Assembly (NCBI GenBank): GCA_964570655.1
Contig: CAZMYU010000005.1
Location: 1-56,578 of the forward strand
Reading direction: 5' to 3'
Length of the DNA: 56,578 nt
From: an uncultured Gammaproteobacteria bacterium
Lineage (GTDB): Bacteria > Patescibacteriota > Patescibacteriia > Patescibacteriales > UBA12465
The notes under the pieces are model-generated. The model did no database searches. It saw nothing but the letters and a program-made list of their open reading frames with translations, and was not told the origin of the DNA. The position numbers were made by a program, and so were the translations under genes. This document shows positions 2,219 to 56,531 of this stretch, piece after piece (position 1 is the stretch's first letter; every line of letters begins with the position of its first letter).

Positions 2219-2298
2219 CTGGATCCTGGCCTTCGCCAGGATGACAGGTGCGGGGGTTGTTTGTTTTAATTGTCATCCTGGCGAAGGCCAGGATCCAG
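2219..2298. repeat. inverted pair of 28-nt REP hairpins (GIY-YIG-associated family)
   Basis: 2219-2246 is the exact reverse complement of 2271-2298 (TGTCATCCTGGCGAAGGCCAGGATCCAG); identical to copies at 46498 and 46859. Confidence 0.95.
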
Positions 2299-5809: not shown

Positions 5810-7066
5810 ATGAAATATGATGTGGCGATAATTGGTGGTGGTCCGGCGGGAATGATGTCGGCTGGTCGGGCTGGCGAACTAGGAGCTAGAGTAGTTTTGC
5901 TAGAAAAAAATTCTCAGTTAGGAATAAAGTTGTTAAGCACCGGTGGCGGTCGTTGCAATTTTACTAATCACAAGAGTAATCGGGAATTGGCCAGTAGTTT
6001 TGGCAAAAGTGGTGCTTGGCTTTTGTCAGGACTCAGTAAATTTGGCCCCGAAGAAGTGATTAAATTTTTTAATAACCGAGGACTTCGTACCAAGGTGGAA
6101 GAAAATGGCCGAGTTTTTCCAGTTAGTAATTTGGCGACAGATGTTTTGCGAGTTTTAACTGATTATTTAAAATCTTCAGCGGTTGAAGTTCGACTAAGCG
6201 CCGAAGTTAAAGATATTGTTAAGGTTAAAAATAAAATTAGCAAAATTATATTAAGTAATGGAGAGGAAATTGTGGCTGATAAATTTGTAATGTGTGTCGG
6301 GGGAAAATCTTATCCGCTGACTGGCTCCACTGGCGATGGTTATAAGTGGCTGAAAAAATTGGGTCATAGTATTGTTGATTTGCGACCAGCTTTGACGCCT
6401 ATTATTTTAAAAGAAACATTTATCAAGGATTTGGAGGGCTTGAGTTTACCAGTAGTGGGATTAACTATTTATAAAAATAATAAAAAAGCGCTAGAGGCTC
6501 TGGGTCCAATTGTTTTTACCCGTCAGGGACTTAGCGGACCACTGATTTTAAATCTAAGTTCGGAGATTGGACTGCTGGGAGGCAAAAATTTGCCAATTCA
6601 ACTAGATTTTTTGCCAGACCTAGATAAGATTCAACTGGACAAAAAATTACAACAAGAATTTGCTTCTAGTAATAAAGTTTTTAAAAATGCTGTTAGTCAA
6701 CTGGTGCCACCAAAATTAGTAGGCCTGATTGTCCGCTTATCTGGCATTTCGCCTCAGAAAAAATTAAACTCCATTACCAAAGAAGAACGGCAAATCCTAG
6801 GGCATCTCTTAAAAGAATTTGCTTTGAACCTGGATAGTTTGGCTGGCTATGATTTGGCCATGATTAGTGCTGGCGGGGTTGATCTAAAAGAAGTGGATCC
6901 TAAGACTATGAAGTCAAAAATAATTGATAATCTCTATTTGGCCGGTGAAATACTGAATCTTAATGGTCCAACTGGTGGCTACAATCTTCAGCTGTGTTGG
7001 ACCACTGGCTATGTTGCCGGAGAATCTGGTGTCAGGCACCAGAAACGATTGCGAAGTCTGAACTAG
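5810..7066 (+). CDS. HI0933/YhiN (BaiN) family flavoprotein
   Basis: IIGGGPAGMM, GIKLLSTGGGRCNFTN, GGKSYPLTGSTGDG, GPTGGYNLQ. Confidence 0.92.
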   Translation: MKYDVAIIGGGPAGMMSAGRAGELGARVVLLEKNSQLGIKLLSTGGGRCNFTNHKSNRELASSFGKSGAWLLSGLSKFGPEEVIKFFNNRGLRTKVEENGRVFPVSNLATDVLRVLTDYLKSSAVEVRLSAEVKDIVKVKNKISKIILSNGEEIVADKFVMCVGGKSYPLTGSTGDGYKWLKKLGHSIVDLRPALTPIILKETFIKDLEGLSLPVVGLTIYKNNKKALEALGPIVFTRQGLSGPLILNLSSEIGLLGGKNLPIQLDFLPDLDKIQLDKKLQQEFASSNKVFKNAVSQLVPPKLVGLIVRLSGISPQKKLNSITKEERQILGHLLKEFALNLDSLAGYDLAMISAGGVDLKEVDPKTMKSKIIDNLYLAGEILNLNGPTGGYNLQLCWTTGYVAGESGVRHQKRLRSLN

Positions 7067-11979: not shown

Positions 11980-12351
11980 ATGGCTGTCGCTAAAAAAAAT
12001 ATTTTGATTGCTGAGGACGAGTCTTCTTTGGCTCGAGCCCTGGAATTGAAATTAAACAAATTGGATTACCAGGTCGTAATTGTTAGTAATGGTGAGGAAG
12101 CGGTGAATCAATTGAGCACTAATAAGTTCAATATTGTTTTGTTGGATTTAATCATGCCCAGATTAGACGGTTTTGGCGTTTTAGAAAAATTAAAAGCTCT
12201 CAAAATAAAGGTTCCAGTGATTGTTTGTTCCAACTTGGGACAGGCCGAAGATCTCAAACGAGCTAAAGAGCTCGGAGCTATGGATTATTTAGTAAAATCC
12301 GATACCCCTATTAATGGGATAGTTGATCGGATCAAAAAATTTATCAAATAA
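11980..12351 (+). CDS. single-domain response regulator (CheY-like)
   Basis: ILIAEDE, LLDLIMP (phospho-Asp), CSN, YLVK. Confidence 0.92.
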   Translation: MAVAKKNILIAEDESSLARALELKLNKLDYQVVIVSNGEEAVNQLSTNKFNIVLLDLIMPRLDGFGVLEKLKALKIKVPVIVCSNLGQAEDLKRAKELGAMDYLVKSDTPINGIVDRIKKFIK

Positions 12352-12355
12352 ATCA

Positions 12356-14038
12356 ATGCTACCTAATATTGATTTGATCAAAAAAATTCTACTGGAAGAG
12401 AATTATGTCTCGGCCGATGATTTTAGTCGGGCTGAAGCTTATTGTCAAAAAAATCACCTAGATTTGCTGGATTATTTACTGAGCGAAGAGCTCCTGAGTT
12501 CTGATCTTTTGGGTCAAGCTATTGCTGAGCATTATAATGTTTCTTATGGTGATTTGAATACTAATCTCAAAACCACTGAACAGATCAAAAAAATTCCAGA
12601 AAAGATTGGCTTGGATTTCCGAGTTATTTTTTTTGGCGAAAATGAAAAGCAAGTTTTTGTTACTACGGACAATCCAGAAGACAAAAACATCATCAAAACT
12701 CTTCAGCCCTTATTTCCCAAAAAGAAGATTACCTTGCTGTATTCTTTGCCTCAAGACATTGATAGCGCTTTGCTAAATTATCGTCGCACTTTGGGCACTA
12801 GATTTGCGGAAATTATTAAATCTAGTGATCGAGTCGCTCCAGAAATTATTGATGAGATTATTGCCGATGCCGTCACTTATCGATCTTCGGATATTCATTT
12901 TGAACCTGAAGAAAAGGAAGTGGTGATTCGTTTTAGAGTTGATGGGGTGCTGCGGGAGGCCGGCCGAATCCCTCTGCCTTTTTACGAGAATATTTTAAAC
13001 CGGATCAAAGTTCAAAGTCGCCTCAGGACTGATGAACATTATAGTGCTCAAGATGGTTCTATTCGTCATTATCAGGGTACCAGAGCGATTGATTTGCGGG
13101 TTTCGATTGTGCCGACTGTTACTGGCGAAAAGATCGTCATTCGTATTTTGTCCCAATATATTCATAGTTTCAATTTGCGAGATTTGGGGTTAGGACCAGA
13201 CGACCAAAATATTTTAGAAAAATCTTCGGATTTGCCTTTTGGTATGATTTTGGTGGTGGGACCAACTGGTAGCGGTAAAACGACTACTCTATATTCGCTT
13301 CTGCGACGTTTGAATCAGCCCGAAGTCAATATTACAACCATCGAAGATCCGGTTGAATATAAAGTGACTGGTATTAATCAAATTCAGGTCAACCTGCAAA
13401 CCAATTTGACCTTTGCCAAGGGACTTAAATCGATTGTTCGGCAAGATCCGGATATTATTTTGGTGGGTGAAATTCGTGATAATGAAACCGCGGAAATTGC
13501 TGTTAACGCCGCTCTAACTGGTCATTTGCTCCTCTCAACTTTTCATGCCAATGATGCTGCCACGGCTGTCCCAAGATTGCTAGATATGGGGATTGAGCCA
13601 TTTTTGTTAGCTTCTACTTTGGAATTGATTATTGCTCAACGCTTGGTCAGGAAGATTTGCGAAAATTGTCGAGTTAGTCGCAAGGTTTTGGCCAAGGACT
13701 TACTCATCACTTATCCATTTCTCAAACCATTTTTGGATACTAATAGTTTGACTTTTTATCAAGGCAAGGGTTGTCCAGCTTGTAATTTTAGTGGCTATCG
13801 GGATCGCGTTGCTATTTTTGAATTAATTAATGTGACTAATGAATTAGAAGATTTGATTTTGCGGAGACCAGCTAGCACTGAAATCTGGAATTTAGCAGTT
13901 AGTCAGGGCGCTCATTCTTTGTTTGCCGATGGCTTGGAAAAAGTTAAAAATGGCATTACGACTCTCGAGGAAGTTTTGCGAGTAGCTGAGGCACCTGGTG
14001 CTAAGAATTTTAATAGCTATGGAAACAAGAAAAAATAA
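12356..14038 (+). CDS. pilB: type IV pilus assembly ATPase PilB/GspE
   Basis: SDIHFEP, GPTGSGKTT, TIEDPVE, RQDPDIILVGEIRD, tetracysteine CENC...CPAC; ATG at 12356. Confidence 0.92.
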   Translation: MLPNIDLIKKILLEENYVSADDFSRAEAYCQKNHLDLLDYLLSEELLSSDLLGQAIAEHYNVSYGDLNTNLKTTEQIKKIPEKIGLDFRVIFFGENEKQVFVTTDNPEDKNIIKTLQPLFPKKKITLLYSLPQDIDSALLNYRRTLGTRFAEIIKSSDRVAPEIIDEIIADAVTYRSSDIHFEPEEKEVVIRFRVDGVLREAGRIPLPFYENILNRIKVQSRLRTDEHYSAQDGSIRHYQGTRAIDLRVSIVPTVTGEKIVIRILSQYIHSFNLRDLGLGPDDQNILEKSSDLPFGMILVVGPTGSGKTTTLYSLLRRLNQPEVNITTIEDPVEYKVTGINQIQVNLQTNLTFAKGLKSIVRQDPDIILVGEIRDNETAEIAVNAALTGHLLLSTFHANDAATAVPRLLDMGIEPFLLASTLELIIAQRLVRKICENCRVSRKVLAKDLLITYPFLKPFLDTNSLTFYQGKGCPACNFSGYRDRVAIFELINVTNELEDLILRRPASTEIWNLAVSQGAHSLFADGLEKVKNGITTLEEVLRVAEAPGAKNFNSYGNKKK

Positions 14039-15113
14039 TTTATCTTTTGTTTTACTCAAAATCGGCTGGGCACGTGATCACCAAGAAAATTTTTTGGAAA
14101 ACTTGGCTATGTTGCTTTCGGCTGGTTTGGATATTTACGGAGCCTTGTCAGCCATCAAAACCGAGGGACGTTCCAAGATATTTGCTAATTTGATTGATTT
14201 TCTGATTTTACAAATTGATAATGGCGATCCTTTGTGGCTGGCTTTAGAAAAAAGCCAGATTTTTTCGGTCCAGGCTATTTCGCTGATTAAAAATGGCGAA
14301 AAATCTGGTCATTTATCAGAAAACCTCAAGGTCTTAGTGGCTCAAAGACGTAAAGAACGAGAATTTTATAGCAAGATTAAATCGGCTCTCCTGTATCCAT
14401 TATTTGTAATGGGCTTAGCCATTATTGTGGCGCTGGGTACTTCTTGGCTGGTTTTGCCGAAGTTAGCGACCGTGTTTCGATCGCTAGATGTAAAATTGCC
14501 AGCTATTACCAAGGCCTTGATCGATTTTGGAGTGTTTATGTCGCATTATGGCTATATTGTGGTCCCGGGGGTAATTATTATTTTAATTGTTATATTTGTA
14601 GTTTTATTTGTTTTGGCCAAAACCAAGTTTATTGGTCAATTTTTTTTATTGCATGCTCCGGGAATTAGGCGCTTGATTATGGAGGCCGAAATTGCCCGCA
14701 GTACTTATATTTTAGGAACCCTACTGAGTTCTGGTTTGCCAATCGTCAATTCCATGGAATCGCTCATTGATTCAGCTGATATTTATGTTTACCGTCGTTT
14801 TTATAAAATGATTGGCAGGAGATTAGAGGAGGGCGATTCGTTTAAAAAGATTTTTACTAGTGATTCCAGGCTAAGTCGTTTTTGGCCAGCCTCTATCCAA
14901 CAACTCATTATGGCGGCTGAAACTTCTGGTAGCTTACCCGAGATGTTAGTGCGGATTAGCCAAGCTTATTCTGAAAAAGTGGATGTTACTAGCAAAAATT
15001 TGGCTGTGTTGTTTGAACCAGTTTTATTGATAATTGTGTGGTTGGGCGTTTTGGGGGTAGCGGTAGCAATATTTTTGCCAATTTATAGCTTGGTGGGATC
15101 ATTTAATCCCTAA
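14019..15113 (+). CDS. pilC: type IV pilus platform protein PilC/GspF
   Basis: Two GspF repeats (GEKSGHL, AETSGSLPEML), LLYP, FEPVLL, IFLPIY; ATG at 14019. Confidence 0.9.
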   Translation: METRKNNLSFVLLKIGWARDHQENFLENLAMLLSAGLDIYGALSAIKTEGRSKIFANLIDFLILQIDNGDPLWLALEKSQIFSVQAISLIKNGEKSGHLSENLKVLVAQRRKEREFYSKIKSALLYPLFVMGLAIIVALGTSWLVLPKLATVFRSLDVKLPAITKALIDFGVFMSHYGYIVVPGVIIILIVIFVVLFVLAKTKFIGQFFLLHAPGIRRLIMEAEIARSTYILGTLLSSGLPIVNSMESLIDSADIYVYRRFYKMIGRRLEEGDSFKKIFTSDSRLSRFWPASIQQLIMAAETSGSLPEMLVRISQAYSEKVDVTSKNLAVLFEPVLLIIVWLGVLGVAVAIFLPIYSLVGSFNP

Positions 15114-15119
15114 AAATTT

Positions 15120-15581
15120 ATGGAGCGACTGCGGCGCCCACAAAACAAAAAACTTTTGGGCTTCACTTTGCTTGAGGCCTTATTAGTTTTGGCTATGCTC
15201 AGCATTGTTTTGGGGATTAGTGCACCAATCTATCATAATGTCCAAGTCAAAACAGCCTTGGATACTCAAGCCAGTATTGTAGCGGGGACTCTCAGACGAG
15301 CGCAAACTTTGGCTAGCACTATGAATAATGATTCGGCTTGGGGAGTTTTGATTAATAATAATTCAATTATTTTATTTTCTGGTTTGAGCTATGCCACGCG
15401 TAATACTAATTTTGATGAAATTTTTGATTTGCCCACCACTGTTTGGCCCAGCGCTAGTACGGAAATAATTTTTGGTAAAAATACGGGATTACCTAATAGC
15501 TCCTCTACTTTTATTTTGTATTCAGCTAATAACGACAATAGAACTATCAGTGTCAATGCTTGGGGGGCTATTAATTATTGA
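15120..15581 (+). CDS. minor pilin (FimT/GspH-like)
   Basis: Prepilin motif G|FTLLEALLVLAML; RTISVNAWGAI tail. Confidence 0.85.
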   Translation: MERLRRPQNKKLLGFTLLEALLVLAMLSIVLGISAPIYHNVQVKTALDTQASIVAGTLRRAQTLASTMNNDSAWGVLINNNSIILFSGLSYATRNTNFDEIFDLPTTVWPSASTEIIFGKNTGLPNSSSTFILYSANNDNRTISVNAWGAINY

Positions 15582-15583
15582 TT

Positions 15584-16969
15584 ATGAAGACTAATTTTCA
15601 AAAACCAGGTTTTAGTTTGGTAGAAGCGATTCTGGCTGGTTTTTTGTTTTCGGCTCTAGCGACTATTTTAATTACTGTTTTGCTTTATGCTCAAGAGAAT
15701 CCGCTTTTAAGTGGCCAAAGAGCTCGGGCTGTTTATTTGGCCGAAGAGGGAATCGAGGCGGCTCGAGCAATCCAGGAAAATAATTTTGCCAATTTAGGAA
15801 TAGGGACTTTTGGACTAGCCACTAGCTCTAATCAATGGACCCTCAGTGGTTCTAGTGATACTCAGGATGGTTTTACTAGATCAATTGCGGTTAGCGCGCT
15901 AAGCGCCTCTAGGAAAGCTGTGGCCGTCACTGTTAATTGGGTTCAAAATGCCCAAAGAAGCGGGACGGTGTCTTTAAACACGGTTCTCACTAATTGGCGA
16001 GCGCCAACTCTGGGTGATTGGACTAATCCTAATACTTTGGGGGCCAGCCTAGATTTAGCTGGTAATAATGACGCTTGGCGTTTGGTAGTAAGTGGCAGCT
16101 ACGCTTATGTAATTGAAGCGGCCAATCCGTCTAATTTTTTAATTATTGATATATCTAATCCAGCTTTGCCGGTTTTGCAAAGCACTACTAATGTGCCTGG
16201 TAATCCTCGTGACATCAAGGTTGTTGGTAATTATGCCTATATCGCTAGCACTGACAATACTCGAGAAATTAATATTTATGATATTTCCAATCCGCTGACT
16301 CCACTCTTGGCTGGGTCTTATAATGCTATTGGCAATGCTGACGCTTATTCCATTGATGTGGTTGGTAATTATTTATATTTTGGCCGAATAGCCAGCACGG
16401 ATCCGGAGTTTTATGTCTTAGATATTTATAATTTGGCCAGTATTAGCTTGCTGGGTAGTTTGCAATTAACTTCGGCAATTAATGAGGTGGCAGTATCTGG
16501 CAATTACGCCTATTTGGCTACGGCTAACACTGCTCAGGAATTACAAATTATTAATGTGACTACTTCGACAGCGCCAGTTTTGGCTGGTTTTTATAATGTA
16601 ACTGGTAGCGCCACTGCTAATGATGTCCTAGTATTTGGGAATAATGTTGCTCTAGCCCTTAGTAATAATCAAGTAGCTATTTTAAATGTGAGTAGCGTTT
16701 CTTCGCCAACGCTGGTATCTTCAGCCCCAATTAGTTCGCCGGCCTCTGGGATAAGCCTAGGAAATAATAATACCTATCTTTTTGTATCTTCGGCCCTGAG
16801 TACGGCCGAATTACAAATTTTTGACATTAGCACCATTGGTAGTCCGACACTTTTAGGCATTTTCAATGCCAGTGCTAGTGCTAATGATGTTTATTACGAT
16901 CCTACCACTGACCGAGCCTATTTAGCAGATACTAGTAATACCCAAGAATTAATTATTGTGGCTCCCTAA
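15584..16969 (+). CDS. pilin-like protein with LVIVD repeats (putative tip adhesin)
   Basis: G|FSLVEAIL; repeated VSGSYAYV/VVGNYAYI/VSGNYAYL...IIDISNP units. Confidence 0.85.
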   Translation: MKTNFQKPGFSLVEAILAGFLFSALATILITVLLYAQENPLLSGQRARAVYLAEEGIEAARAIQENNFANLGIGTFGLATSSNQWTLSGSSDTQDGFTRSIAVSALSASRKAVAVTVNWVQNAQRSGTVSLNTVLTNWRAPTLGDWTNPNTLGASLDLAGNNDAWRLVVSGSYAYVIEAANPSNFLIIDISNPALPVLQSTTNVPGNPRDIKVVGNYAYIASTDNTREINIYDISNPLTPLLAGSYNAIGNADAYSIDVVGNYLYFGRIASTDPEFYVLDIYNLASISLLGSLQLTSAINEVAVSGNYAYLATANTAQELQIINVTTSTAPVLAGFYNVTGSATANDVLVFGNNVALALSNNQVAILNVSSVSSPTLVSSAPISSPASGISLGNNNTYLFVSSALSTAELQIFDISTIGSPTLLGIFNASASANDVYYDPTTDRAYLADTSNTQELIIVAP

Positions 16970-16972
16970 ATT

Positions 16973-17479
16973 ATGAATCTGACAACAAAAAAACTTGGCT
17001 TTACTTTAATCGAGTTGTTGTTATATACAGCCTTGGCCGGATTTTTAATTTTGGTGATTAGTTCGTTTATGTCGATTTTGTGGCAAGTGCAAGCGAAGAC
17101 GCGGGCGATTTCCGAAGTCGAGCAACAAGGCGCGCAAATTATGGATATTATCTTGACTCAGGTTCGAAGTACTTCAGTGGTAAATATTCCTAGCTCTGGA
17201 CTTAGTTCTAGTACTTTGAGTTTGGCTACCAGTACGCCTGGTAATAATCCAATTGTTTTTACTTTAAATAATAATAATTTACTTTTAAGTTTAGGATCAA
17301 ATTCGGTCCTACCTTTAAATAATAATAAAATAATAATTTCTAATTTGCGTTTTTCTGATTACGGGGCCACGGGCATAGATTCGGTTCGGGTTCAGTTTAC
17401 GGCTAGCTATCTCAATACTGGTAATAAGTCGGAATATAATTATAGTCAAAATTTTTATGGCACAGCCACCAGCCGTTAA
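16973..17479 (+). CDS. minor pilin (PilW-like)
   Basis: G|FTLIELLLYTAL. Confidence 0.85.
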   Translation: MNLTTKKLGFTLIELLLYTALAGFLILVISSFMSILWQVQAKTRAISEVEQQGAQIMDIILTQVRSTSVVNIPSSGLSSSTLSLATSTPGNNPIVFTLNNNNLLLSLGSNSVLPLNNNKIIISNLRFSDYGATGIDSVRVQFTASYLNTGNKSEYNYSQNFYGTATSR

Positions 17480-17861
17480 GCCGGCCTACATTTTACTTAT
17501 TAGTGTTTTGATCTTGGGAGCTATTAGTTTGGTCATCGCTTCAGCCTTGCTTTTGTTGGGAATATCCGGAACCAAAACAGTGATTAGTCTAGAGCAGGGA
17601 GCTAAGGCCCGTTATTTGGCTAATGCTTGTGCCGAAGAAGCCCTGGAACAAATTAGGAGCTCCACTACTTATGTGGGGGTAGTCAATTTAACTTATTCTG
17701 AAGGAACTTGTTCGTATACGGTGACAAATACTGGCGGAAGCACTCGGGAGATCAGGGTAATTAGTACTGCTTATAGTAATACTCAAAGATTATTGATTAA
17801 TCTGAGTTCTTTAAGCCCGCAATTAACAGTTTCTAGCTGGAAAGAAGTAGCTGATTTTTAA
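17457..17861 (+). CDS. minor pilin (PilX-like)
   Basis: AYILLISVLILGA hydrophobic N-terminus lacking Glu5; ARYLANACAEEALEQI. Confidence 0.75.
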   Translation: MAQPPAVKPAYILLISVLILGAISLVIASALLLLGISGTKTVISLEQGAKARYLANACAEEALEQIRSSTTYVGVVNLTYSEGTCSYTVTNTGGSTREIRVISTAYSNTQRLLINLSSLSPQLTVSSWKEVADF

Positions 17862-17971
17862 AAATTATGCTATTATTCTAATAGGTTTATTTTTTATATA
17901 ATATTTTTTTTATTTTAATTACTTATAAGTAGTTTTTAAAAACTAGTTATAGATAATTAACACCAATCATT

Positions 17972-18448
17972 ATGAGTTGTTGCTCAGGCAAAACCAAAGC
18001 CCCCAAAAAGGCCAAAAAAGCCAAAAAAGGCTTTACTTTATTAGAAGTATTATTGGTAGTAGCGATTATCGCCATTTTGGCGGGAATTGTGATTCTAGCC
18101 TTAAATCCTTCTAAGCAATTAGCTGATTCACGCAATTCTCAACGTCGAGTTGATGTGAACACCATTTTAAATGCCGTGTATCAATATGCTGTGGATAATA
18201 ATGGCACTGTTCCAGCCACCATTTTGACTACCAGCACTGAAATTTGTAAGGCTAGCAGCACCTGCACTGGGTTAGTTGACCTATCAGTTTTAACCAATAG
18301 TGAAAAATTTTTGACTTCTATACCAACAGATCCAACCGGAGCTAGTACTAATGGTACTGGTTATAGGATTATGAAAACTGTTAACAATCGTGTCACGGTT
18401 ACAGCTCCTTCGGCTGAAAATGGAGCTTCCATTTCGGTTACTAGATAG
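17972..18448 (+). CDS. major type IV pilin candidate
   Basis: KG|FTLLEVLLVVAIIAILAGIV..LNP; preceded by its own AT-rich intergenic region and followed by a hairpin at 18462-18493. Confidence 0.88.
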   Translation: MSCCSGKTKAPKKAKKAKKGFTLLEVLLVVAIIAILAGIVILALNPSKQLADSRNSQRRVDVNTILNAVYQYAVDNNGTVPATILTTSTEICKASSTCTGLVDLSVLTNSEKFLTSIPTDPTGASTNGTGYRIMKTVNNRVTVTAPSAENGASISVTR

Positions 18449-25565: not shown

Positions 25566-25611
25566 AATCCTGGTGCCTGGCACCAGAATTCTGGTGCCTG
25601 GCACCAGGAAT
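25566..25611. repeat. tandem REP doublet, left flank of RAYT
   Basis: Two copies of CTGGTGCCTGGCACCAG (25570-25586, 25591-25607). Confidence 0.9.
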
Positions 25612-25792
25612 TAAAAAACATCAAAAAAACCAATGTTTTAGAGTCTTTAATCTAATGTTTTGATAAATTATTTCGGGCTTGATTATTTTAAAATTTGTAT
25701 TAAAATATAGATAAATTAATTAAAATTAATATTCAATTTCAAACAAGCCCCTCATTTGTTGGGGCTTTTTGTTTTGGATAAAATTTAAACGT

Positions 25793-26449
25793 ATGGGACG
25801 GCCACTTAGAATTCAATACCCCGGAGCCCTGTATCATGTCTTTACTAGGGGCAATAATAAAAAAATAATATTTATGAATGATGGCGATTATGGATTATTT
25901 TTGTCTATTTTAAAAAAGGTTGTAAATGATTACGGATGGGTAATATACGCTTACTGTTTAATGCCCAATCATTATCATCTGCTAATTGAAACACCAAAGG
26001 CTAATTTGGCTAAGGGGATGTTTGAGTTAAATTATAAATACGCTAATAAATTCAATTATTTTTATAAAAAAGTGGGGCATTTGTTTGCTGGAAGATATAA
26101 AGCTATTTTAGTTGAAAAAGAATCCTATTTGTTCAGATTGATAAAGTATATTGCTCAAAATCCAGTTAGAAAAAGACTGGTTAAGAGTCCATCGACTTGG
26201 CGGTGGAGCAGTTGTTTCGAAATAATTAAAAACAAAAGAATAACCGGATGCATAGATAGAGAAAAAATAATGTTATTATTTGGCAACATGTTAGAATATA
26301 AACGATTTATTTCAACTGGAAAAATTAGCGAAAATTTTGTTAGACTCGGTATTCAAAATAAGTATATTCTCGGATCTCAGAGTTTTATAGCTAGTATTAG
26401 GAATCTTGGTGCCAGGCACCAGAATCCTGGTGCCTGGCACCAGGAATAG
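25793..26449 (+). mobile_element. REP-associated tyrosine transposase (RAYT, Y1 HUH family)
   Basis: YHVFTRGNN, AYCLMPNHYHLL (HUH), FAGRYKA, KYIAQNPVR (catalytic Tyr), WRWSS; flanked by REPs; ATG 25793. Confidence 0.9.
26402..26447. repeat. tandem REP doublet, right flank of RAYT (inside the 3' end of the ORF)
   Basis: 43/46 identical direct repeat of 25566-25611; encodes LGARHQNPGAWHQE. Confidence 0.9.
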
Positions 26450-39284: not shown

Positions 39285-40862
39285 TTATTCCATTGCTTTC
39301 ATCATTTGTCTAGCCACAGCTTCAACCACTGGAACACTAACTGAATTTCCAAATTGCTTATAAAGAGCTGAATCAGCTAATTGCGGTAATTTATAATCAG
39401 CAGGGAATCCCTGGATACGAGCACATTCCAGTGGAGTCAATTTTCTAATACCTTTTTTATCTTTAATAATTGGCACATTATGTCCACCGGTTCCCATATT
39501 AGCAGTTAGCGTTGGGCAAACACCACTTTTATTTTCACGAACATAATGTCTTCGCCATTGATATACCTTACCTTCCTCTTTTATAAAGTTTTTCAATTTT
39601 TTATATAACGGCTTGCCATTATAATAATATTTTTCAGGAACATTCTTCTCTAACAAATCAGTAATCTTTTTAGTAAGCTTAACTGGGTTGGGAAATTCAA
39701 ATTTTTCGGCATAATCTTTATTTCTAAAACCAACGATATAAATACGCTCCCTATTTTGTGGAATATTTCCATATTCCATGCTGTTTAAAACTTTTGTTTT
39801 TACATGGTAACCAAGATTTTTTAATGTTTCTTCTATTACTTTAAATGTTTTTCCTTGGTCGTGACTTTTTAGATTTTTAACATTTTCCAATAAAAAACCT
39901 TCTGGTTTTCGGGCGTCAATTATTCGAGTGATATCAAAAAATAAATTCCCCCTGCCTTTCTCGTCGTCAAAGCCCTGTCTATGCCCGGCTATAGAAAAAG
40001 CTTGACAAGGGAATCCCCCTAAAAGGAAGTCGAATTCAGGTAAATCATCTATCCCGATTTTTCTTATATCTTCAACTATTAATTTGGAATCTTTAAAATT
40101 AAGATCATATGTTTCCTTGCATTGAGATTCAAAATCATTAGCAAAAACTGTTTTAAATCCAGCATTTTCAAATCCTAGTCGTATTCCACCAACACCGGCA
40201 AAAAGATCAATTGTTTTAAATCCGTGTTTAGTTTTTTTAGAGTTTTTTTTCTCTGGTTCATTGGCTATACTACTTATAACCTGAATAACAACACCACGCA
40301 CTTCGACCTCTTTCCGATAAAAGGGAAGCATAGACTGGTTTCTTGGTTCAAGTCGATATCTTGTTTTTTCTCGGTATAGCTTTTTAAGAGTTGCCTGATT
40401 ATCATCAATAATAGCCACGACTGTTTGTCCATTTTCTGCCACTGATTGTTTTTTGATTATAACAATATCTCCATCGAAAATTCCTTCGTCAATCATGCTA
40501 TCACCCGTAACACGCAAAGCGTAATATCCTTCGGCGGTTTTAATAGATGGATTAACTATAGAAATAGTGTCTTCAATATTTTCAATAACTTCTATTGGAT
40601 ATCCAGCAGCAATTTTTCCGACAATAGGAATTTCTACGATAGATTTTATTTCTTTTTTAATAGATAAACCCCTGGCAGAATTTTCTGATTTCGAAATATA
40701 TTCCTTAGCTTCAAGATTATCGATATGTTCATGAATAGTAGAAACCGCCTTAAGCTTTAATTTTTTCCGTATTTCTTCAATAGTTGGCGATATGCCATTT
40801 TCAGCAATATAGGAACTTATAAAATCAAATACCTGTTTTTGTTTTTTTGTAATATTTTGCAT
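39285..40862 (-). CDS. lexA: LexA repressor - C5 cytosine DNA methyltransferase fusion
   Basis: N-terminal wHTH, A86-G87 site, S122 and K160; then FAGVGG, GGFPCQ, ENVKN, QNRER, YKQFGNSV; target-recognition region YQWRRHYVRENKSGVCPTLTANMGTGGHNVP resembles M.Bsp6I (GCNGC). Confidence 0.92.
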   Translation of the reverse strand: MQNITKKQKQVFDFISSYIAENGISPTIEEIRKKLKLKAVSTIHEHIDNLEAKEYISKSENSARGLSIKKEIKSIVEIPIVGKIAAGYPIEVIENIEDTISIVNPSIKTAEGYYALRVTGDSMIDEGIFDGDIVIIKKQSVAENGQTVVAIIDDNQATLKKLYREKTRYRLEPRNQSMLPFYRKEVEVRGVVIQVISSIANEPEKKNSKKTKHGFKTIDLFAGVGGIRLGFENAGFKTVFANDFESQCKETYDLNFKDSKLIVEDIRKIGIDDLPEFDFLLGGFPCQAFSIAGHRQGFDDEKGRGNLFFDITRIIDARKPEGFLLENVKNLKSHDQGKTFKVIEETLKNLGYHVKTKVLNSMEYGNIPQNRERIYIVGFRNKDYAEKFEFPNPVKLTKKITDLLEKNVPEKYYYNGKPLYKKLKNFIKEEGKVYQWRRHYVRENKSGVCPTLTANMGTGGHNVPIIKDKKGIRKLTPLECARIQGFPADYKLPQLADSALYKQFGNSVSVPVVEAVARQMMKAME

Positions 40863-41396: not shown

Positions 41397-41425
41397 CTGG
41401 ATCCCCAGTCGAGCTGGGGATGACA
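41397..41425 (-). repeat. REP variant (29 nt)
   Basis: Reverse complement reads TGTCATCCCCAGCTCGACTGGGGATCCAG; ends identical to the 28-nt family. Confidence 0.85.
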
Positions 41426-41434
41426 GATAATCAT

Positions 41435-43936
41435 ATGGAAGAACAAATCATTATAAAAGGGGCGAAAATGCACAATCTCAAGAATATTGACCTGAGCATC
41501 CCCCACAACAAATTAACAGTTATTAGCGGTGTTTCTGGCTCGGGCAAGTCATCGCTGGCTTTTGATACCATTTTTGCTGAAGGTCAACGGCAATACGTGG
41601 AGTCTTTGTCGCCCTATATGCGCCAGTTTTTGGGACAAAAAAAACCAGCCGAAGTGGATCAAATCATTGGTCTAGCTCCGGCTATTTCCATTGACCAAAA
41701 AGCCCTATCTCATAATCCGCGCTCCACTGTTGGAACTTTAACCGAGATTCATGACTATCTACGGGTTTTATATGCCCGTTTGGGTGAAGTCTTTTGTCCG
41801 GTTTGCGGTCACAAAATTGAAAAATTAACTTTGGAAGAAATGGTCGATATTATTATTAATCGCGGCAAAGAATTCCAAAAGGAATATGTCACCATTTTTA
41901 GTCCAGTCGTTTCTGGCCGCAAAGGTGAATATTATCAATTGCTCTATGATTATTTATCTCTTGGTTATAGCCAGGCGCGCATTGATGGTGTACTGCATAA
42001 TTTACGTGAACCTATCAAATTATCGGCCACCAAAAAACATAATATTGAAATTTTGATCGACAAAGTGATGCTAAATGACGAAGGTCGAATGTTTGAAGCG
42101 GTGGAAAATTCTATTAATTATAGCAAGGGGCTAGCCATTGCTAATTATGAAAACCAAGAATTTTTATTATCTTCTAATTGGACTTGTCCGAATGATAATT
42201 TTTCTTTTCCCGAAGTAGAGCCGCGACTTTTTTCTTTTAATTCTCCGCATGGCGCTTGTCCGGATTGTTCCGGCCTAGGAAAAATCGGCTTTAGCACCGA
42301 AGACGCCTGCCCAAGTTGCCAAGGCCAAAGGCTCAAACCTGAAGCCCTGTCAGTCAAAATAAAAAATCAAAATATCGCTCAAGTTTCCAAAATGTCCGCT
42401 TCCAAGGCTCATGATTTCTTTTGGAATTATTTTTCCAAAATGACCAAACGCCAATTGGCGATTGCCGAAAATGTGATGACCCAAATTATTAATCGCCTAG
42501 ATTTTATGATTAGGGTGGGGCTAGACTATATTTCCTTGGACCGGGAAGCCGAAACCTTGTCAGGTGGTGAAGCCCAAAGAATTAGGTTGTCCTCACAAAT
42601 TGGTTCGCAATTATCGCGTACTCTCTATGTCTTGGATGAGCCAACTATTGGTCTGCACGAAAAAGATACCGATCGACTTATCCAAACTCTCAAAACTTTA
42701 AGAGACAAGCATAATACTGTCGTCATTGTTGAGCACGATGAACGCACTATTTTGGAATCTGATTATTTGGTAGATTTAGGGCCACTGGCCGGAGTACATG
42801 GCGGAGAAATTGTCGCCATTGGTGCCACCAAGGATTTACTCGGTCCTAAGAGTGAGCAATTTAAAGACTCATTAACTTTGAAATATTTAAAAAAGAAACG
42901 ACAAATCGAAGCTCCCCGAGAAAGACGCAGTCAAAATCACGGCGAACTTAAAATTATTGGTGGACGAGCTAATAATTTGAAAAACATTAATGTTAGCATT
43001 CCTCTGGGACGACTAGTGGGAATTACCGGAGTTTCAGGGAGCGGTAAATCTTCGCTACTTTATGATGTCGTTTATAAAAATATTACTAGGATCAAAAATC
43101 GACCAGGTGGCCGAGCCAAACTGGAAAACGTCACTGATATCAAAGGCACTGAATCAATTAATAAAATTATTGTTATCAATCAATCACCAATTGGTCGCAC
43201 TCCACGTTCTAATCCGGCTACCTACACGGGAATCTTTACGCCAATTCGAGATTTTTTTGCCGAGCTACCAGCGGCCAAAGAACGAGCCTATACTTTGTCG
43301 CGTTTTTCTTTTAATCGCCCAGGAGGACGTTGCGAAGCTTGTGCGGGAGCTGGTTTTAATCTAATTGAAATGCATTTTCTACCAGCCGTGCTAGTAGAAT
43401 GCGAAGTCTGTCGAGGCAAACGTTTTAATCGAGAAACTTTGCAGGTAAAATATAAAGGATTAAACATTTCCGAAATATTAAACTTAACTATTGATGAGGC
43501 CTATGATTTATTTTCTGAACACTATCAGATTGCCGATAAATTAAAAGTGTTAAAAGAGGTTGGATTAGGTTATTTACAACTTGGACAATCCGCGACCACC
43601 TTGTCGGGCGGAGAGGCCCAGAGAATTAAAATCGCCAAAGAACTCACTCATACCTTGGGTCAAAAAACCCTCTATCTACTAGACGAACCAACTACTGGGC
43701 TTCATTATGAAGACATCAAAATGCTTCTGCAGGTTTTAAACAAATTAGTCGACAAAGGAAACTCCGCTCTAATCATTGAACATAATTTGCATATGATCAA
43801 ATCTATGGATTATGTCCTAGATTTAGGCCCTGGTGGTGGAGATAATGGTGGAAAACTAATTGCCAAGGGCGAACCCGAAGATTTAGTAAGGGATGAAAAT
43901 AGTATTACCGGAAAATATTTGAAAGAATATTTATAA
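41435..43936 (+). CDS. uvrA: excinuclease ABC subunit A
   Basis: HNLKNID, GVSGSGKSS twice, LSGGEAQRI twice, Zn fingers; ATG 41435 (track start 41420 lies in the REP). Confidence 0.97.
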   Translation: MEEQIIIKGAKMHNLKNIDLSIPHNKLTVISGVSGSGKSSLAFDTIFAEGQRQYVESLSPYMRQFLGQKKPAEVDQIIGLAPAISIDQKALSHNPRSTVGTLTEIHDYLRVLYARLGEVFCPVCGHKIEKLTLEEMVDIIINRGKEFQKEYVTIFSPVVSGRKGEYYQLLYDYLSLGYSQARIDGVLHNLREPIKLSATKKHNIEILIDKVMLNDEGRMFEAVENSINYSKGLAIANYENQEFLLSSNWTCPNDNFSFPEVEPRLFSFNSPHGACPDCSGLGKIGFSTEDACPSCQGQRLKPEALSVKIKNQNIAQVSKMSASKAHDFFWNYFSKMTKRQLAIAENVMTQIINRLDFMIRVGLDYISLDREAETLSGGEAQRIRLSSQIGSQLSRTLYVLDEPTIGLHEKDTDRLIQTLKTLRDKHNTVVIVEHDERTILESDYLVDLGPLAGVHGGEIVAIGATKDLLGPKSEQFKDSLTLKYLKKKRQIEAPRERRSQNHGELKIIGGRANNLKNINVSIPLGRLVGITGVSGSGKSSLLYDVVYKNITRIKNRPGGRAKLENVTDIKGTESINKIIVINQSPIGRTPRSNPATYTGIFTPIRDFFAELPAAKERAYTLSRFSFNRPGGRCEACAGAGFNLIEMHFLPAVLVECEVCRGKRFNRETLQVKYKGLNISEILNLTIDEAYDLFSEHYQIADKLKVLKEVGLGYLQLGQSATTLSGGEAQRIKIAKELTHTLGQKTLYLLDEPTTGLHYEDIKMLLQVLNKLVDKGNSALIIEHNLHMIKSMDYVLDLGPGGGDNGGKLIAKGEPEDLVRDENSITGKYLKEYL

Positions 43937-45169: not shown

Positions 45170-45637
45170 ATGTCTAAAACAAACATCAAAAAATTTTATC
45201 GCTCCCGCACTGATCGATTCTTTTTGGGCGTTTGCGGTGGCTTAGCCGAATTTTTTCAAGTTGATGCCAATTTGGTTCGGGCTGTTTTTATACTCCTAGC
45301 CTTTGCTAACGGATTGGGTTGTCTGCTTTATATTTCGTTGGCGATTATAATTCCTCTCAAACCAAAAGGACTGCCAGAAAATGGCGGCGACCACACTGAG
45401 CATCATAGTGGCCTTCTAAACATTGTCGGTCTTTTTGTGGTGATTATCGGTGTTTTACTTTTGGCCAAAATGTTTTTTCCTTTTGTAATCAATTGGAATA
45501 TACTTTATTCCATTATTATCATAATTTTAGGATTATTTTTAATAATTAAAAAAGATAATTTAATATTTTTATGCCCAAAATTACTAAGGGTAACGGCGCC
45601 CAAAAAACTGCCGAACCCAAAACTTTTAAAAAAATAG
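45170..45637 (+). CDS. PspC-domain membrane protein
   Basis: KKFYRSRTDRFFLGVCGGLAEFF..D.NLVR; ATG 45170; 3' end overlaps next gene by 67 nt. Confidence 0.8.
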   Translation: MSKTNIKKFYRSRTDRFFLGVCGGLAEFFQVDANLVRAVFILLAFANGLGCLLYISLAIIIPLKPKGLPENGGDHTEHHSGLLNIVGLFVVIIGVLLLAKMFFPFVINWNILYSIIIIILGLFLIIKKDNLIFLCPKLLRVTAPKKLPNPKLLKK

Positions 45638-46371
45638 CCAATGAGATGGGGGTCCGCGAAGCCCTAAAACATCATTATCACGACCATCGCCTAGAAAGCT
45701 GCAGTTGTGGCAATGATGATCATTGTCAATGTTATTTTAATAAAATCTTTTTGGGACTTATCTTTTTGTTGGTTGGTTTATTGTATTTAGCCAAGAGTTT
45801 CAATATTCTACCATTTAATTTGAATTTTAATGTTTTGAATTTCTGGCCAGTTTTGATTATTATTATTGGACTCTTCTTGATCAACCGTCAATCCAAATTA
45901 TCTTTGTTTATCGGAATTTTATCAGCCGCGGTTTTTATGATGGTCATCATATTTATTATTAGCTATGTGGATAGCAAATATGATTATAATTTTGAATTAA
46001 ACACCCCGATTGTGGCTCATATCCAAAAAGTCAAAACCACTGTGGAGGGAGAAAATACTATCAAAATTAGCAATATTCGTGGTAATCAATTAATCGTGAG
46101 CCCGCTCACTGTTGAAGGTCAAGCTAAAGGTAATTGGTTTTTTGAGGGCAGCTTCCCAGTCAAACTTTTTGATGAAAATGGCCAAAAATTAGGCGAAGGT
46201 GTAGCCAAGGCCGAAGGGGAATGGACCACTGAAGATTTTGTGAATTTCAAAGCCCAGATTGACTTTATCAAAGCTTCTTCTTCTAAAGGTGTCCTAATTT
46301 TAGAAAAAGATAATCCATCAGGCGATCCAAACAATTCGGAAAAAATGATTATCCCAGTAAACTTCTACTAA
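45571..46371 (+). CDS. LiaF/DUF5668-like TM region plus Gmad2 Ig-like domain
   Basis: IFLGLIFLLVGLLYL...FWPVLIIIIGL; SPLTVEGQAKGNWFFEGSFPV...LILEKDNPSG. Confidence 0.75.
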   Translation: MPKITKGNGAQKTAEPKTFKKIANEMGVREALKHHYHDHRLESCSCGNDDHCQCYFNKIFLGLIFLLVGLLYLAKSFNILPFNLNFNVLNFWPVLIIIIGLFLINRQSKLSLFIGILSAAVFMMVIIFIISYVDSKYDYNFELNTPIVAHIQKVKTTVEGENTIKISNIRGNQLIVSPLTVEGQAKGNWFFEGSFPVKLFDENGQKLGEGVAKAEGEWTTEDFVNFKAQIDFIKASSSKGVLILEKDNPSGDPNNSEKMIIPVNFY

Positions 46372-46386
46372 TACATATTACTCTTC

Positions 46387-46420
46387 AACACCCCATCAAT
46401 TCGATGGGGTGTTTTGTTTT
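46387..46420 (+). terminator. intrinsic terminator
   Basis: AACACCCCATC-aattc-GATGGGGTGTT-TTGTTTT. Confidence 0.85.
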
Positions 46421-46483
46421 ACTTTTGTCTGTCATCCCCAGCACTCCTTCTTGTCACCTTGATTGTTTTTTTACTTATCATCC

Positions 46484-46849
46484 CTAACCCCCTTCTTTGT
46501 CATCCTGGCGAAGGCCAGGATCCAGGTTCAAATTAAATTTCTGACCAAAAGCTAATTCAAATAAGGGTAGGTATAAATCATCCCAGTTAGGGTTGACTTC
46601 TTCTATTAATCTTATCTTCCATTCACGCCTCCAATACTTTAAATCCTTCTCTCTTTTAATAGCTAGACCGATATCACCATAAATTTCATAATAGACTAAT
46701 TTATCAATATTATATTTACTGGTAAAACAATCTGATCTGATTTTCTGTTTATGCTGATAGACTCTATTGATAAGACTGTTAGTTACTCCGATATACAGCG
46801 TGCCGTTTCTTTTACTAGCCAATATGTAGGTATAATATTTCCCCTCCAT
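46484..46849 (-). CDS. stand-alone GIY-YIG nuclease (YhbQ/UPF0213-like)
   Basis: YYTYILASKRNGTLYIGVTNSLINRVYQHK, LVYYE, AIKREKDLK, NPNWDDL. Confidence 0.92.
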   Translation of the reverse strand: MEGKYYTYILASKRNGTLYIGVTNSLINRVYQHKQKIRSDCFTSKYNIDKLVYYEIYGDIGLAIKREKDLKYWRREWKIRLIEEVNPNWDDLYLPLFELAFGQKFNLNLDPGLRQDDKEGG

Positions 46850-46886
46850 ATAATTAACCTGGATCCTGGCCTTCGCCAGGATGACA
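46498..46886. mobile_element. GIY-YIG gene bounded by perfect 31-bp inverted REP repeats
   Basis: 46498-46528 TGTCATCCTGGCGAAGGCCAGGATCCAGGTT is the exact reverse complement of 46856-46886. Confidence 0.7.
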
Positions 46887-46976
46887 GTTTAGAGGGGTAA
46901 TATTAATAAAGATGCTGAAGGGCTGGACACGCAGTGGAGGGGGAATATTAACGGTGAATAAACGATGTTGGCATCC

Positions 46977-47651
46977 TCAGCGACTGGTGTCCAGTTTATA
47001 GCCCCGACCAATAAAGGTATGAATAAGATCGGGTTTGTCAGGTATCCTCATCTTACGCCGTAAACTGCTCATATGAGTCTCGATGGTATTAGACAAAAGA
47101 TCACCGTTGATATCCCAAACATTTTCTAAAATCTGCGTTCGGGACAAAACCTTGCCCCGATTCTTGATCAAAAATTCCAAGATAGCAAATTCCTTCTTGG
47201 TTAATTCTATTTTTTTGGATCCGCGTTTCACTATATATTCATCGCTATCAATTGATAAATCCCCCAGTTTAAAAAAACGCCCCTGGATGTTGAGGGGGCG
47301 ACGGAGAAGGGCTTTGAGATGTAATAGCAATTCGTCAAAGACGAAAGGCTTACTTAGAAAATCATCAATACCTAATTCATATAAATTTTTCTTAGTAGCC
47401 AAATCATTTTTGCCGGTGATAATAATGATTGGTACGGGATTATTATCTTGGCGAATTTCCCGCACTACTTCTGGCCCGGCTTGTTTGGGCAAAATATCGT
47501 TCATAATAATAGCCTGATAAGTATTGGTTCGAGCCAAAAAGGATCCTTGCTCACCATCACTAGCGATATCAACGCTAAAATACCGAGCTTCCAGGCCCGC
47601 TTTTAAAAACTGAGCGACTTCTGGTTGGTCCTCTATTATTAAGAGACGCAT
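46977..47651 (-). CDS. orphan OmpR-family response regulator, atypical acceptor site
   Basis: LIIEDQ receiver and wHTH (LTKKEFAILEFL, NTIETHMSSLRRK, HTFIGRGY); IIMNDILP where LDxxLP is expected. Confidence 0.9.
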   Translation of the reverse strand: MRLLIIEDQPEVAQFLKAGLEARYFSVDIASDGEQGSFLARTNTYQAIIMNDILPKQAGPEVVREIRQDNNPVPIIIITGKNDLATKKNLYELGIDDFLSKPFVFDELLLHLKALLRRPLNIQGRFFKLGDLSIDSDEYIVKRGSKKIELTKKEFAILEFLIKNRGKVLSRTQILENVWDINGDLLSNTIETHMSSLRRKMRIPDKPDLIHTFIGRGYKLDTSR

Positions 47652-53899: not shown

Positions 53900-53928
53900 T
53901 GTCATCCCCAACTCGATTGGGGATCCAG
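53900..53928 (+). repeat. REP variant (29 nt)
   Basis: TGTCATCCCCAACTCGATTGGGGATCCAG between greA and lysS. Confidence 0.85.
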
Positions 53929-56460: not shown

Positions 56461-56531
56461 TCGGGGATCGTCTAATGGTAGGACGCTAGGTTCTGGCCCT
56501 GGTAATTATGGTTCGAATCCATATCCCCGAG
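56461..56531 (+). tRNA. tRNA-Gln(CTG)
   Basis: Acceptor TCGGGGA/TCCCCGA (U1-A72), D-arm GTC-TAATGGTAG-GAC, anticodon loop TTCTGGC, T-arm TATGG-TTCGAAT-CCATA; CCA not encoded. Confidence 0.93.

Follow-up and report, generated by a model that had tools for sequence, protein, structure and literature searches.

We analyzed a 56,578-nt stretch of DNA (contig CAZMYU010000005.1 of assembly GCA_964570655.1, referred to here as the window) in which a small gene for a GIY-YIG nuclease lies between two inverted hairpin repeats. Judged from the sequences of the gene, its product and the repeats, the locus is very probably an ssn gene accompanied by the SRM hairpin repeats that belong to it, in a host that is probably a member of the Patescibacteria (candidate phyla radiation, CPR). 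Ssn proteins are a family of site-specific single-stranded DNA (ssDNA) endonucleases, and their repeats have been named NTS or SRM (Chenal et al. 2025, Nat Commun 16:2388, PMC11893778). The association between Ssn and SRMs has itself been known since 2025, and the original prediction, made from the raw sequence, rediscovered that system; this is known biology and not a new class. The locus adds an uncharacterized member in a lineage outside the text of the 2025 paper.

The ssn gene and the SRM copies of the window

The GIY-YIG gene is enclosed by a perfect inverted repeat. The sequence TGTCATCCTGGCGAAGGCCAGGATCCAGGTT is present at 46498-46528 (+) and its exact reverse complement at 46856-46886, giving a perfect 31-nt inverted repeat around the 121-amino-acid (aa) open reading frame (ORF), as the original prediction from this DNA had described. 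The inverted repeat extends imperfectly to 44 nt (46485-46528 and 46856-46899, 86% complementary). Six nucleotides separate the ATG (46849-46847) from the inner end of the right arm (46856), and the left arm is translated as the C-terminal end of the ORF, which closes with LDPGLRQDDKEGG and a stop codon; both of these details had also been predicted and were found to be correct. The features of the locus and the other copies of the repeat are:

46484..46849 (-): ssn gene, GIY-YIG ORF of 121 aa
46559-46849 (-): conserved Ssn core, residues 1-97, from the family alignment
46484-46558 (-): ssn tail, residues 98-121, a non-conserved read-through of spacer and SRM-L
46859..46886 (-): SRM-R, 28 nt, TGTCATCCTGGCGAAGGCCAGGATCCAG, upstream of ssn on the sense strand, head away from the gene, matching the published pattern
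46498..46525 (+): SRM-L, 28 nt, inverted relative to SRM-R, at the 3' end of ssn, head away from the gene, matching the published pattern
2219-2298: gene-less head-to-head SRM dimer with a 24-nt spacer (copies at 2219-2246 (-) and 2271-2298 (+)), identical to the SRM that flanks ssn
41397..41425 (-): type B SRM, TGTCATCCCCAGCTCGACTGGGGATCCAG, between genes, immediately before uvrA
53900..53928 (+): another type B SRM, TGTCATCCCCAACTCGATTGGGGATCCAG, between genes, in front of the gene for lysyl-tRNA synthetase
46430..46442 (+): probable half-SRM remnant, TGTCATCCCCAGC, between the terminator of a LiaF-like gene and SRM-L

The product of the gene is related to the Ssn proteins of Neisseria. SsnA of N. 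meningitidis is a 94-aa, single-domain GIY-YIG protein of CDD cd10448 (GIY-YIG_unchar_3), the group that defines Ssn in the 2025 study, in which homology to SsnA was called at E < 1e-10; the substitutions Y6A, Y17A and E64A abolish its cleavage activity (PMC11893778). The protein encoded in the window is 52% identical over 91 aa (E 2e-33) to the 94-aa N. gonorrhoeae ortholog of SsnA, which carries Tyr6, Tyr17 and Glu64, the residues mutated in the N. meningitidis study. Residues Y8, Y19 and E67 of our protein align with these three. Identity was 53% (E 9e-35) to the homolog from N. sicca, whose gene lies between dRS3/NTS-type repeats, and 28% (E 3e-07) to YhbQ of Escherichia coli. The gonococcal sequence was recovered from a chromosome mislabelled as a plasmid in PLSDB (L231, NZ_CP119140.1).

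The protein is a single-domain GIY-YIG protein. Pfam GIY-YIG (PF01541) matched residues 4-78 (E 4.9e-14) with no other Pfam domain, and no accessory DNA-binding domain was found in the Pfam scan, the family alignment or the structural model. The core conserved among homologs is 95-98 aa long and ends at about residue 97; Y8, Y19, R29, H33 and E67 are invariant in the family alignment (Y8, Y19 and E67 in 27 homologs). An AlphaFold model had predicted local distance difference test (pLDDT) values of 84-97 for residues 1-100 and about 40-55 beyond them (means of 10-residue blocks), and its top fold matches in PDB were GIY-YIG proteins, namely 1zg2 (the best), Slx1 and UvrC. No PDB chain matched the protein when searched by sequence, and no NCBIfam model matched it.

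The C-terminal tail, DPGLRQDD, is incidental read-through into the repeat. SRM-L overlaps the 3' end of the extended reading frame; read-through is tolerated since the repeat's reverse complement, in the ssn frame, is free of stop codons. Among the 80 homologs described below, only four have ORFs that enter their own downstream SRM, and residues 106-121 of the model have pLDDT values below 50. We rejected a functional role for the tail, as it is not conserved, is disordered, and is of a kind that is rare among homologs.

The window contains six SRM copies and the remnant, with one pair of copies arranged as a head-to-head dimer. Four copies (SRM-R, SRM-L and the two of the dimer) are of type A, with the order TGTC head, ATCCTGGC stem, GAAG loop, GCCAGGAT stem and CCAG tail. 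The published SRM pattern, HGTCWYN(0-2)YYVSBRHN(0-5)WNVSBRGN(0-2)RNCYNB (PMC11893778), matched exactly these four copies in the window, compared to 0.01 matches expected, and a search with a 24-mer that allowed up to three mismatches gave four matches against 0.00 expected (100 dinucleotide-preserving shuffles). Each SRM copy in the window folds as ssDNA into an 8-bp hairpin (z -3.0 to -4.4); for SRM-R, with its GAAG loop, the energy was -11.3 kcal/mol (z -4.4). The gene-less copies at 2219 and 2271, which had been noticed previously, form the dimer just downstream of the terminator of a Cache/HAMP sensor gene, and the whole dimer folds as ssDNA into a 28-bp hairpin (-36.1 kcal/mol). A scan of the window against Rfam gave no family match on the SRM hairpins.

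The two type B copies share the head TGTCAT and the tail GGATCCAG with type A and differ by a CCCCAR stem (8 bp) and a 5-nt loop. They fail the strict published pattern, and 5-nt-loop SRMs of this type flank Ssn homologs at three loci (L009, L032 and L058). The sequence at 46430-46442, when compared with the copy at 41397-41425, looks like a type B head and 5' stem lacking the 3' partner, and is probably an SRM remnant.

All SRM copies in the window are intergenic except for the overlaps by the extended ssn ORF and by the longest uvrA ORF. The reverse complement of the SRM head (ATGACA) gives rise to spurious start codons, both in this longest uvrA ORF and in ORFs of the "MDSRLRGND" type in Neisseriaceae. 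The longest uvrA ORF begins at ATG 41420, inside the reverse complement of the SRM head (region 41397-41440). The second ATG, at 41436 (MEEQIIIKGAK...), looks like the real uvrA start, which would place the type B SRM about 10 nt upstream of uvrA.

Three of the four type A copies (46485-46497, 46887-46899 and 2247-2258) carry, 5-7 nt before the TGTC head, a stretch rich in C (AACCCCC or ACCCC), which falls in the zone of predicted cleavage. Across the 80 homolog loci, the 12 nt upstream of the SRM head are pyrimidine-rich and G-poor.

Association of SRMs with ssn homologs

SRMs are concentrated next to homologs of ssn in many phyla. The protein has more than 4,000 homologs. A genome scan with alignment of homologs gave 80 loci, picked on protein similarity alone (49-68% identity), from Patescibacteria (12 loci), Planctomycetes, Ignavibacteria, Alpha-, Beta-, Gamma- and Deltaproteobacteria, Omnitrophota and others. 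At least one SRM matching the strict pattern was present in 62 of the 80. A strict match was found within 200 bp upstream in 42 loci, within the same distance downstream in 43, and on both sides in 24. SRMs were 40-fold denser within 250 bp of the gene (1.62 per kb) than in the rest of the flanks (0.040 per kb). The orientation was also biased: upstream SRMs were on the strand of the gene in 39 cases versus 12, and downstream SRMs on the other strand in 39 versus 10, the same heads-out arrangement as in the window.

The strict pattern overlooks obvious copies, for example at L208 and L218. A relaxed finder, which asks for the tag and for a GC-rich stem of 6 bp or more, detected an upstream copy at 61 loci and a downstream copy at 65; 54 of the 80 (68%) had both. 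As a control, the same finder detected a copy in 3.7% of 1,917 single 290-bp windows from the same loci. The original prediction had held that the GIY-YIG gene and the repeat are a specific pair; the enrichment and the both-sided flanking bear this out, and over the 80 loci the repeat clearly flanks these genes more often than it would random genes. Of the Ssn homologs in RefSeq, 71% were reported to have at least one SRM and 42% to have SRMs on both sides (PMC11893778).

The repeats at a locus resemble each other more than they resemble those of other loci. The two SRMs of one gene were 0.94 identical on average, compared to 0.77 between genes (24 of 24 pairs), and 7 of 24 homolog loci had perfect pairs of flanking copies, as in the window. 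SRMs distant from the gene in a locus were more similar to the copies at their own gene (0.81) than to those of other genes (0.66), in 19 of 21 comparisons.

The structure of the repeat is conserved along with its unpaired bases. In 33 distinct 28-nt SRM variants, including that of the window, neither the GTC of the head nor the C that follows the stem varies; the GTC before the palindrome and the C after it are the bases most important for cleavage and binding by the N. meningitidis enzyme (PMC11893778). The 8-bp stem is paired at 96.6%, with compensatory changes at six of the eight pairs, and the covariation score was reached in none of 500 shuffles.

Repeats of this kind are also widespread on contigs that lack the gene. 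A metagenome scan with the query GTCATCCTGGCNNNNGCCAGGATCC gave at least 120 loci (L084-L203) with GC contents of 33-72%, from many unrelated organisms, and six of these had an Ssn homolog. The SRM variant GTCATCCTGGC-N4-GCCAGGATCC (21 specified bases) is mostly solitary, with no ssn within the contig (at least 120 contigs).

Two homolog loci have SRMs in unusual states. At L112 (2141-2835, contig Ga0172371_10024472), a 57% identical Ssn homolog adjoins two tandem arrays of three SRMs each, with a 36-bp period and the same CCTGGC stem as in the window, and a seventh copy is found at the opposite side of the gene; the arrays are superficially CRISPR-like. At L208 (2470-2500), upstream of the homolog P0038, the SRM has collapsed to TGTCAT joined directly to AGGAATCCAG, with the 5' stem and the loop gone, as expected from slippage across the hairpin. 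The downstream SRM at this locus is intact and overlaps the end of the ORF.

Proposed role, mobility and rival explanations

The published biochemistry suggests how the enzyme in the window would act. SsnA of N. meningitidis binds CGTCATTCCCGCGMAVGCGGGAATCYRG (NTS, an oriented form of dRS3) solely as ssDNA, cuts a few nucleotides upstream of it, and is inactive on double-stranded DNA (dsDNA), on RNA and on the reverse strand; four Ssn homologs each cut their own SRM as ssDNA and in a sequence-specific manner (PMC11893778). By homology to the characterized proteins, the core of about 97 residues would be a monomeric, Mg2+-dependent GIY-YIG endonuclease that binds the SRM solely as ssDNA folded into a hairpin and solely in the TGTC...CCAG strand, with subsequent cleavage of this strand on the 5' side of the TGTC head, at a distance of a few nucleotides. 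In the genome, it would target the two heads-out copies around ssn together with the head-to-head dimer (2219-2298), and perhaps the type B copies too. At ssn, the upstream copy presents its cleavable orientation in the sense strand and the downstream copy in the antisense strand, and therefore both predicted cuts lie just outside the cassette and on opposite strands. For the dimer, both predicted cuts are inside the 24-nt spacer. The original prediction spoke of a nickase; ssDNA endonuclease is the proper term, as neither nicking of dsDNA nor joining has been reported for Ssn (PMC11893778).

We believe that the role of Ssn in this host is most likely to cut SRM-bearing ssDNA arising from DNA uptake, replication or repair, and that recombination would thereby be modulated. 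In Neisseria, SsnA acts on transforming ssDNA. The type IV pilus genes of the window fit a lifestyle with DNA uptake, and a link between them and ssn is speculation.

The gene appears to behave like a resident single-copy gene that is kept together with its repeats, as RAYT genes are, and not like an actively transposing insertion sequence (IS). The 605-bp ssn locus is 100% identical in three other samples. No empty site was found: the exact Ssn and response-regulator proteins occurred together solely on three short contigs with the same arrangement, and the nearest homologs of the response regulator, through which the empty-site analysis called for by the original prediction was carried out, were at most 55% identical and not syntenic. 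A 90-aa ORF inserted beside one of these response-regulator homologs was considered as a candidate and rejected, as it encodes a membrane protein and not Ssn. Identical copies of two homologs were likewise fixed in place. P0038 was between ligA and gatC in all 10 of the places listed (24 contigs read), and P0031 had one context, with local variation only, in all 10 of the places listed (23 contigs read). Among these places, neither homolog gave a sign of recent transposition.

The original prediction went further and held that the nuclease propagates the repeats, with gene and hairpins forming a minimal selfish unit. In its strong form, SRM-ssn-SRM would be an active autonomous selfish element whose GIY-YIG enzyme copies or moves the cassette and the solitary hairpins. 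The layout is indeed IS-like, with terminal inverted repeats that are perfect in both flanking copies here and identical in 7 of the 24 homolog loci, and distant copies resemble the flanking copies of their own gene, as described above. The ssn protein shows 55-68% identity among Patescibacteria, Ignavibacteria, Planctomycetes and Proteobacteria, compared to at most 55% for the response regulator. Horizontal spread would fit this, and strong constraint on an enzyme of 95 aa would explain high identity between phyla equally well. In addition, 21 specified SRM bases are shared by contigs of 33-72% GC, and Chenal et al. themselves put forward a role of Ssn in repeat spread as a hypothesis (PMC11893778). 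However, the window has one copy of the gene, the locus is invariant in four samples, the identical homologs P0038 and P0031 have one context each among the places listed, and the sequence beyond the 44-nt inverted repeat shows no target-site duplication. No relative of the protein was present in 50,697 phage records, and 32 of 33 matches in the plasmid collection were to non-mobilizable replicons or mislabelled chromosomes, counts that must be read with the caveat that PLSDB lists replicons of 1.7-4.9 Mb as plasmids. At least the two 2.17-Mb N. gonorrhoeae records in PLSDB, which have little or no annotation, are evidently whole chromosomes.

The expected chemistry also speaks against such an element. 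GIY-YIG nucleases hydrolyze DNA with no covalent intermediate, and therefore strand transfer is not expected and any spread of the repeats would need host replication or repair. The inverted SRMs leave one cleavable site per strand, which makes single-strand excision of the IS200/IS605 type unavailable. With no empty site, an identical locus in three further samples, fixed contexts of the homologs and no reported joining by Ssn, we consider it unlikely that the cassette is an autonomous selfish element. We are similarly doubtful that it is, or recently was, a semi-autonomous mobile unit, in which the GIY-YIG enzyme would nick 5' of the hairpins on opposite strands and host replication or repair would copy the hairpins and sometimes the gene. 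We likewise consider it unlikely that Ssn also seeds new repeats. If the mobile-unit reading were true, Ssn would be the long-missing propagating enzyme of a superfamily of repetitive extragenic palindromic (REP) repeats, those with a CGTC tag, and a non-HUH counterpart of RAYT.

Three further explanations are much less probable than these. The neighborhood might be fortuitous, with an abundant REP inserted on both sides of an unrelated small GIY-YIG gene: REP-like elements favor intergenic regions downstream of genes, and ssn is in a 605-bp convergent intergenic region. This is refuted by the 40-fold enrichment and strong orientation bias of SRMs over 80 loci in many phyla and by both-sided flanking in 68% of the loci versus 3.7% for a single control window, along with the reported flanking of 71% and 42% of RefSeq homologs (PMC11893778), and we regard its probability as negligible. 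The gene might instead encode a free-standing homing endonuclease like I-TevI or I-BmoI, an enzyme that cleaves alleles lacking its gene and spreads into them through repair: the gene is small, lies between other genes and encodes a GIY-YIG catalytic domain. However, the conserved protein here is a catalytic domain of about 97 aa with no DNA-binding domain or linker, it has no relatives in the phage records and is not in an intron or intein, and homing would require the reverse of what is seen, as the recognized sequence is found both next to the gene and at dozens of sites without it; this explanation is very improbable. Slightly less so, and still quite improbable, is the view that the hairpins are mainly RNA elements (terminators, mRNA stabilizers or controls of ssn translation) next to an unrelated YhbQ-like repair nuclease. 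SRMs are 6-45 nt from the start or stop codons of homologs and are probably transcribed, the copies in the window adjoin terminators or gene ends, and many REPs are downstream of genes (PMC3733652). Against this, there is no Rfam family match, YhbQ is only 28% identical, and a terminator role leaves the invariant unpaired GTC head and the C after the stem unexplained; moreover, N. meningitidis SsnA binds the ssDNA form with a nanomolar Kd and does not bind RNA (PMC11893778). An RNA-level side effect of the hairpins is compatible with the locus being an ssn gene with its SRMs.

Several points weigh against our conclusion that this is an ssn gene with cognate SRMs. The N. gonorrhoeae ortholog stood in for the N. 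meningitidis protein in our comparisons, and for membership in cd10448 a proxy served, namely that the protein is far closer to Neisseria Ssn than to YhbQ. The SRMs flanking the gene in the window are heads-out, in contrast to the copies adjoining the N. gonorrhoeae gene, which are heads-in. The count of SRMs in the host is limited to the window, and the metagenome matches are mostly from other organisms. Finally, the specificity of Ssn varies among homologs, and a change of the palindrome that kept the hairpin abolished the activity of N. meningitidis SsnA (PMC11893778), which makes the cleavage position given here an extrapolation.

Neighboring genes and comparison with known systems

The ssn gene is alone in a 605-bp gap between two convergent genes. 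These neighbors, and a transposase gene considered below, are:

45571-46371 (+): gene for a LiaF-like membrane protein, left of ssn
46387-46413: clear terminator of the LiaF-like gene
46977-47651 (-): gene for an OmpR-type response regulator, right of ssn
25769-26449 (+): gene for a RAYT-like Y1 transposase (Y1_Tnp, PF01797, at 8e-13)

The best homologs of the adjoining response regulator were all in metagenome-assembled genomes of Patescibacteria, at up to 55% identity, which suggests a CPR host with no close relative among the sequenced genomes. The GC content is 35-44%, and other genes in the neighborhood include uvrA, uvrC, a LexA-S24-cytosine methylase fusion, type IV pilus genes, an H+-pyrophosphatase and a copper ATPase. 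A scan of the ssn strand for sigma-70-like promoters gave no site and is uninformative for this lineage. The type IV pilus cluster (12323-18448) encodes a PilB-type ATPase, a PilC-type platform protein, an LVIVD-repeat protein and several prepilin-like ORFs with an N-terminal methylation motif. The fusion is a 525-aa ORF at 39285-40862 (-) that combines a LexA DNA-binding domain (PF01726), an S24 peptidase (PF00717) and a complete C-5 cytosine DNA methylase (PF00145, 3e-96). It is unusual, is divergent from uvrA, and has a type B SRM in the intergenic region common to both genes. A tRNA gene at 56461-56531 (+) was the sole Rfam match at the gathering score in the window.

The locus shares its layout with REPtrons and has different chemistry. 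The original prediction pointed to a RAYT/REP-like arrangement within this same DNA, and there is one: tandem doublets of the palindrome CTGGTGCCWGGCACCAG bracket the RAYT-like gene (25566-25611 and 26402-26447, the latter overlapping the end of the ORF), with a solo copy at 7026-7042. The score against NCBIfam REP_Tyr_transpos was 65.7 bits, under the 80-bit cut-off. Within 21 kb, the window thus has both a RAYT/REP pair and an Ssn/SRM pair. As in REPtrons, ssn is a single-copy resident gene between inverted hairpin repeats, with gene-less copies and dimers dispersed elsewhere, and the RAYT product, as is predicted for Ssn here, recognizes its flanking hairpin repeat as ssDNA. The likeness is in the layout alone. 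The ssn gene encodes a GIY-YIG protein with no Y1_Tnp (PF01797) or HUH domain, and its catalytic fold and chemistry are unrelated to those of RAYT: GIY-YIG enzymes carry out one-metal hydrolysis, and HUH/Tyr enzymes form a covalent 5'-phosphotyrosine that permits rejoining. The tag and the repeat family differ as well, those of RAYT being GTAG-tagged REPs/REPINs.

Proteins of the UPF0213/YhbQ family (E. coli YhbQ; PDB 1zg2 and 1ywl) are similar in size and also have a single GIY-YIG domain. The C-terminal helix region W-x-R-x-W-K-x-x-L-I-E, invariant among the aligned Ssn proteins, is missing from them, and no member is known to be associated with SRMs.

The closest known system is that of Chenal et al., who already compared Ssn/SRM with IS200/IS605 transposases and with REP/BIME repeats (PMC11893778). 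The gene in the window shares the single GIY-YIG domain, the core of about 95 aa and the catalytic Tyr, Tyr and Glu, and its repeats share the invariant GTC head, the 8-bp stem, the 4-nt loop and the C-CAG tail, as well as their presence on both sides of the gene and dispersal elsewhere. It differs from Neisseria in the stem of the repeat (CCTGGC/GCCAGG, not TCCCGCG/CGCGGGA) and in the head (TGTC, not CGTC), and from published Ssn in an ORF that continues into the downstream repeat. The host, with its low GC content and probable place in the CPR, differs from those of the 2025 paper, in whose text neither Patescibacteria nor the candidate phyla radiation comes up (PMC11893778). The combination of a CCTGGC stem and a TGTC head is a candidate new specificity for the ssDNA-cutting tools proposed by the 2025 authors.

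The repeats are evidently also those described earlier as CGTC-tagged REPs. Di Nocera et al. (2013, PMC3733652) reported that these have a tag that is at times TGTC, stems of 8-9 bp starting with AT, loops of 4-5 nt and a CCA tail, that they occur mostly as head-to-head dimers, that the CGTC-1 group includes dRS3 of Neisseria and RPE-6 of Rickettsia, and that they have no dedicated transposase. The likeness to CGTC-tagged REPs and dRS3 that the original prediction had pointed out, and the lack of a dedicated transposase, are as in that paper. The window repeat fits the description base for base (TGTC tag, 8-bp stem starting with AT, 4-nt loop, CCA tail), and the unpaired tag and the 5-nt loop of type B agree as well. 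Within the window, the one head-to-head dimer and the mostly intergenic positions of the copies are in line with it. The difference is that no dedicated enzyme was found in 2013, whereas the repeats of the window are paired with ssn. We equate SRMs with CGTC-tagged REPs because the motif anatomy is the same, the same genera are involved and dRS3 belongs to both; this is our synthesis and not a quoted statement, and in the literature collection searched we found no mutual citation among the 2013 REP paper, a 2025 REP survey and the Ssn paper. The comparison joins two literatures, on CGTC-tagged REPs (2013) and on SRM/Ssn (2025), and it extends the Ssn/SRM system to small, probably CPR genomes, where it is found beside a RAYT/REP pair.

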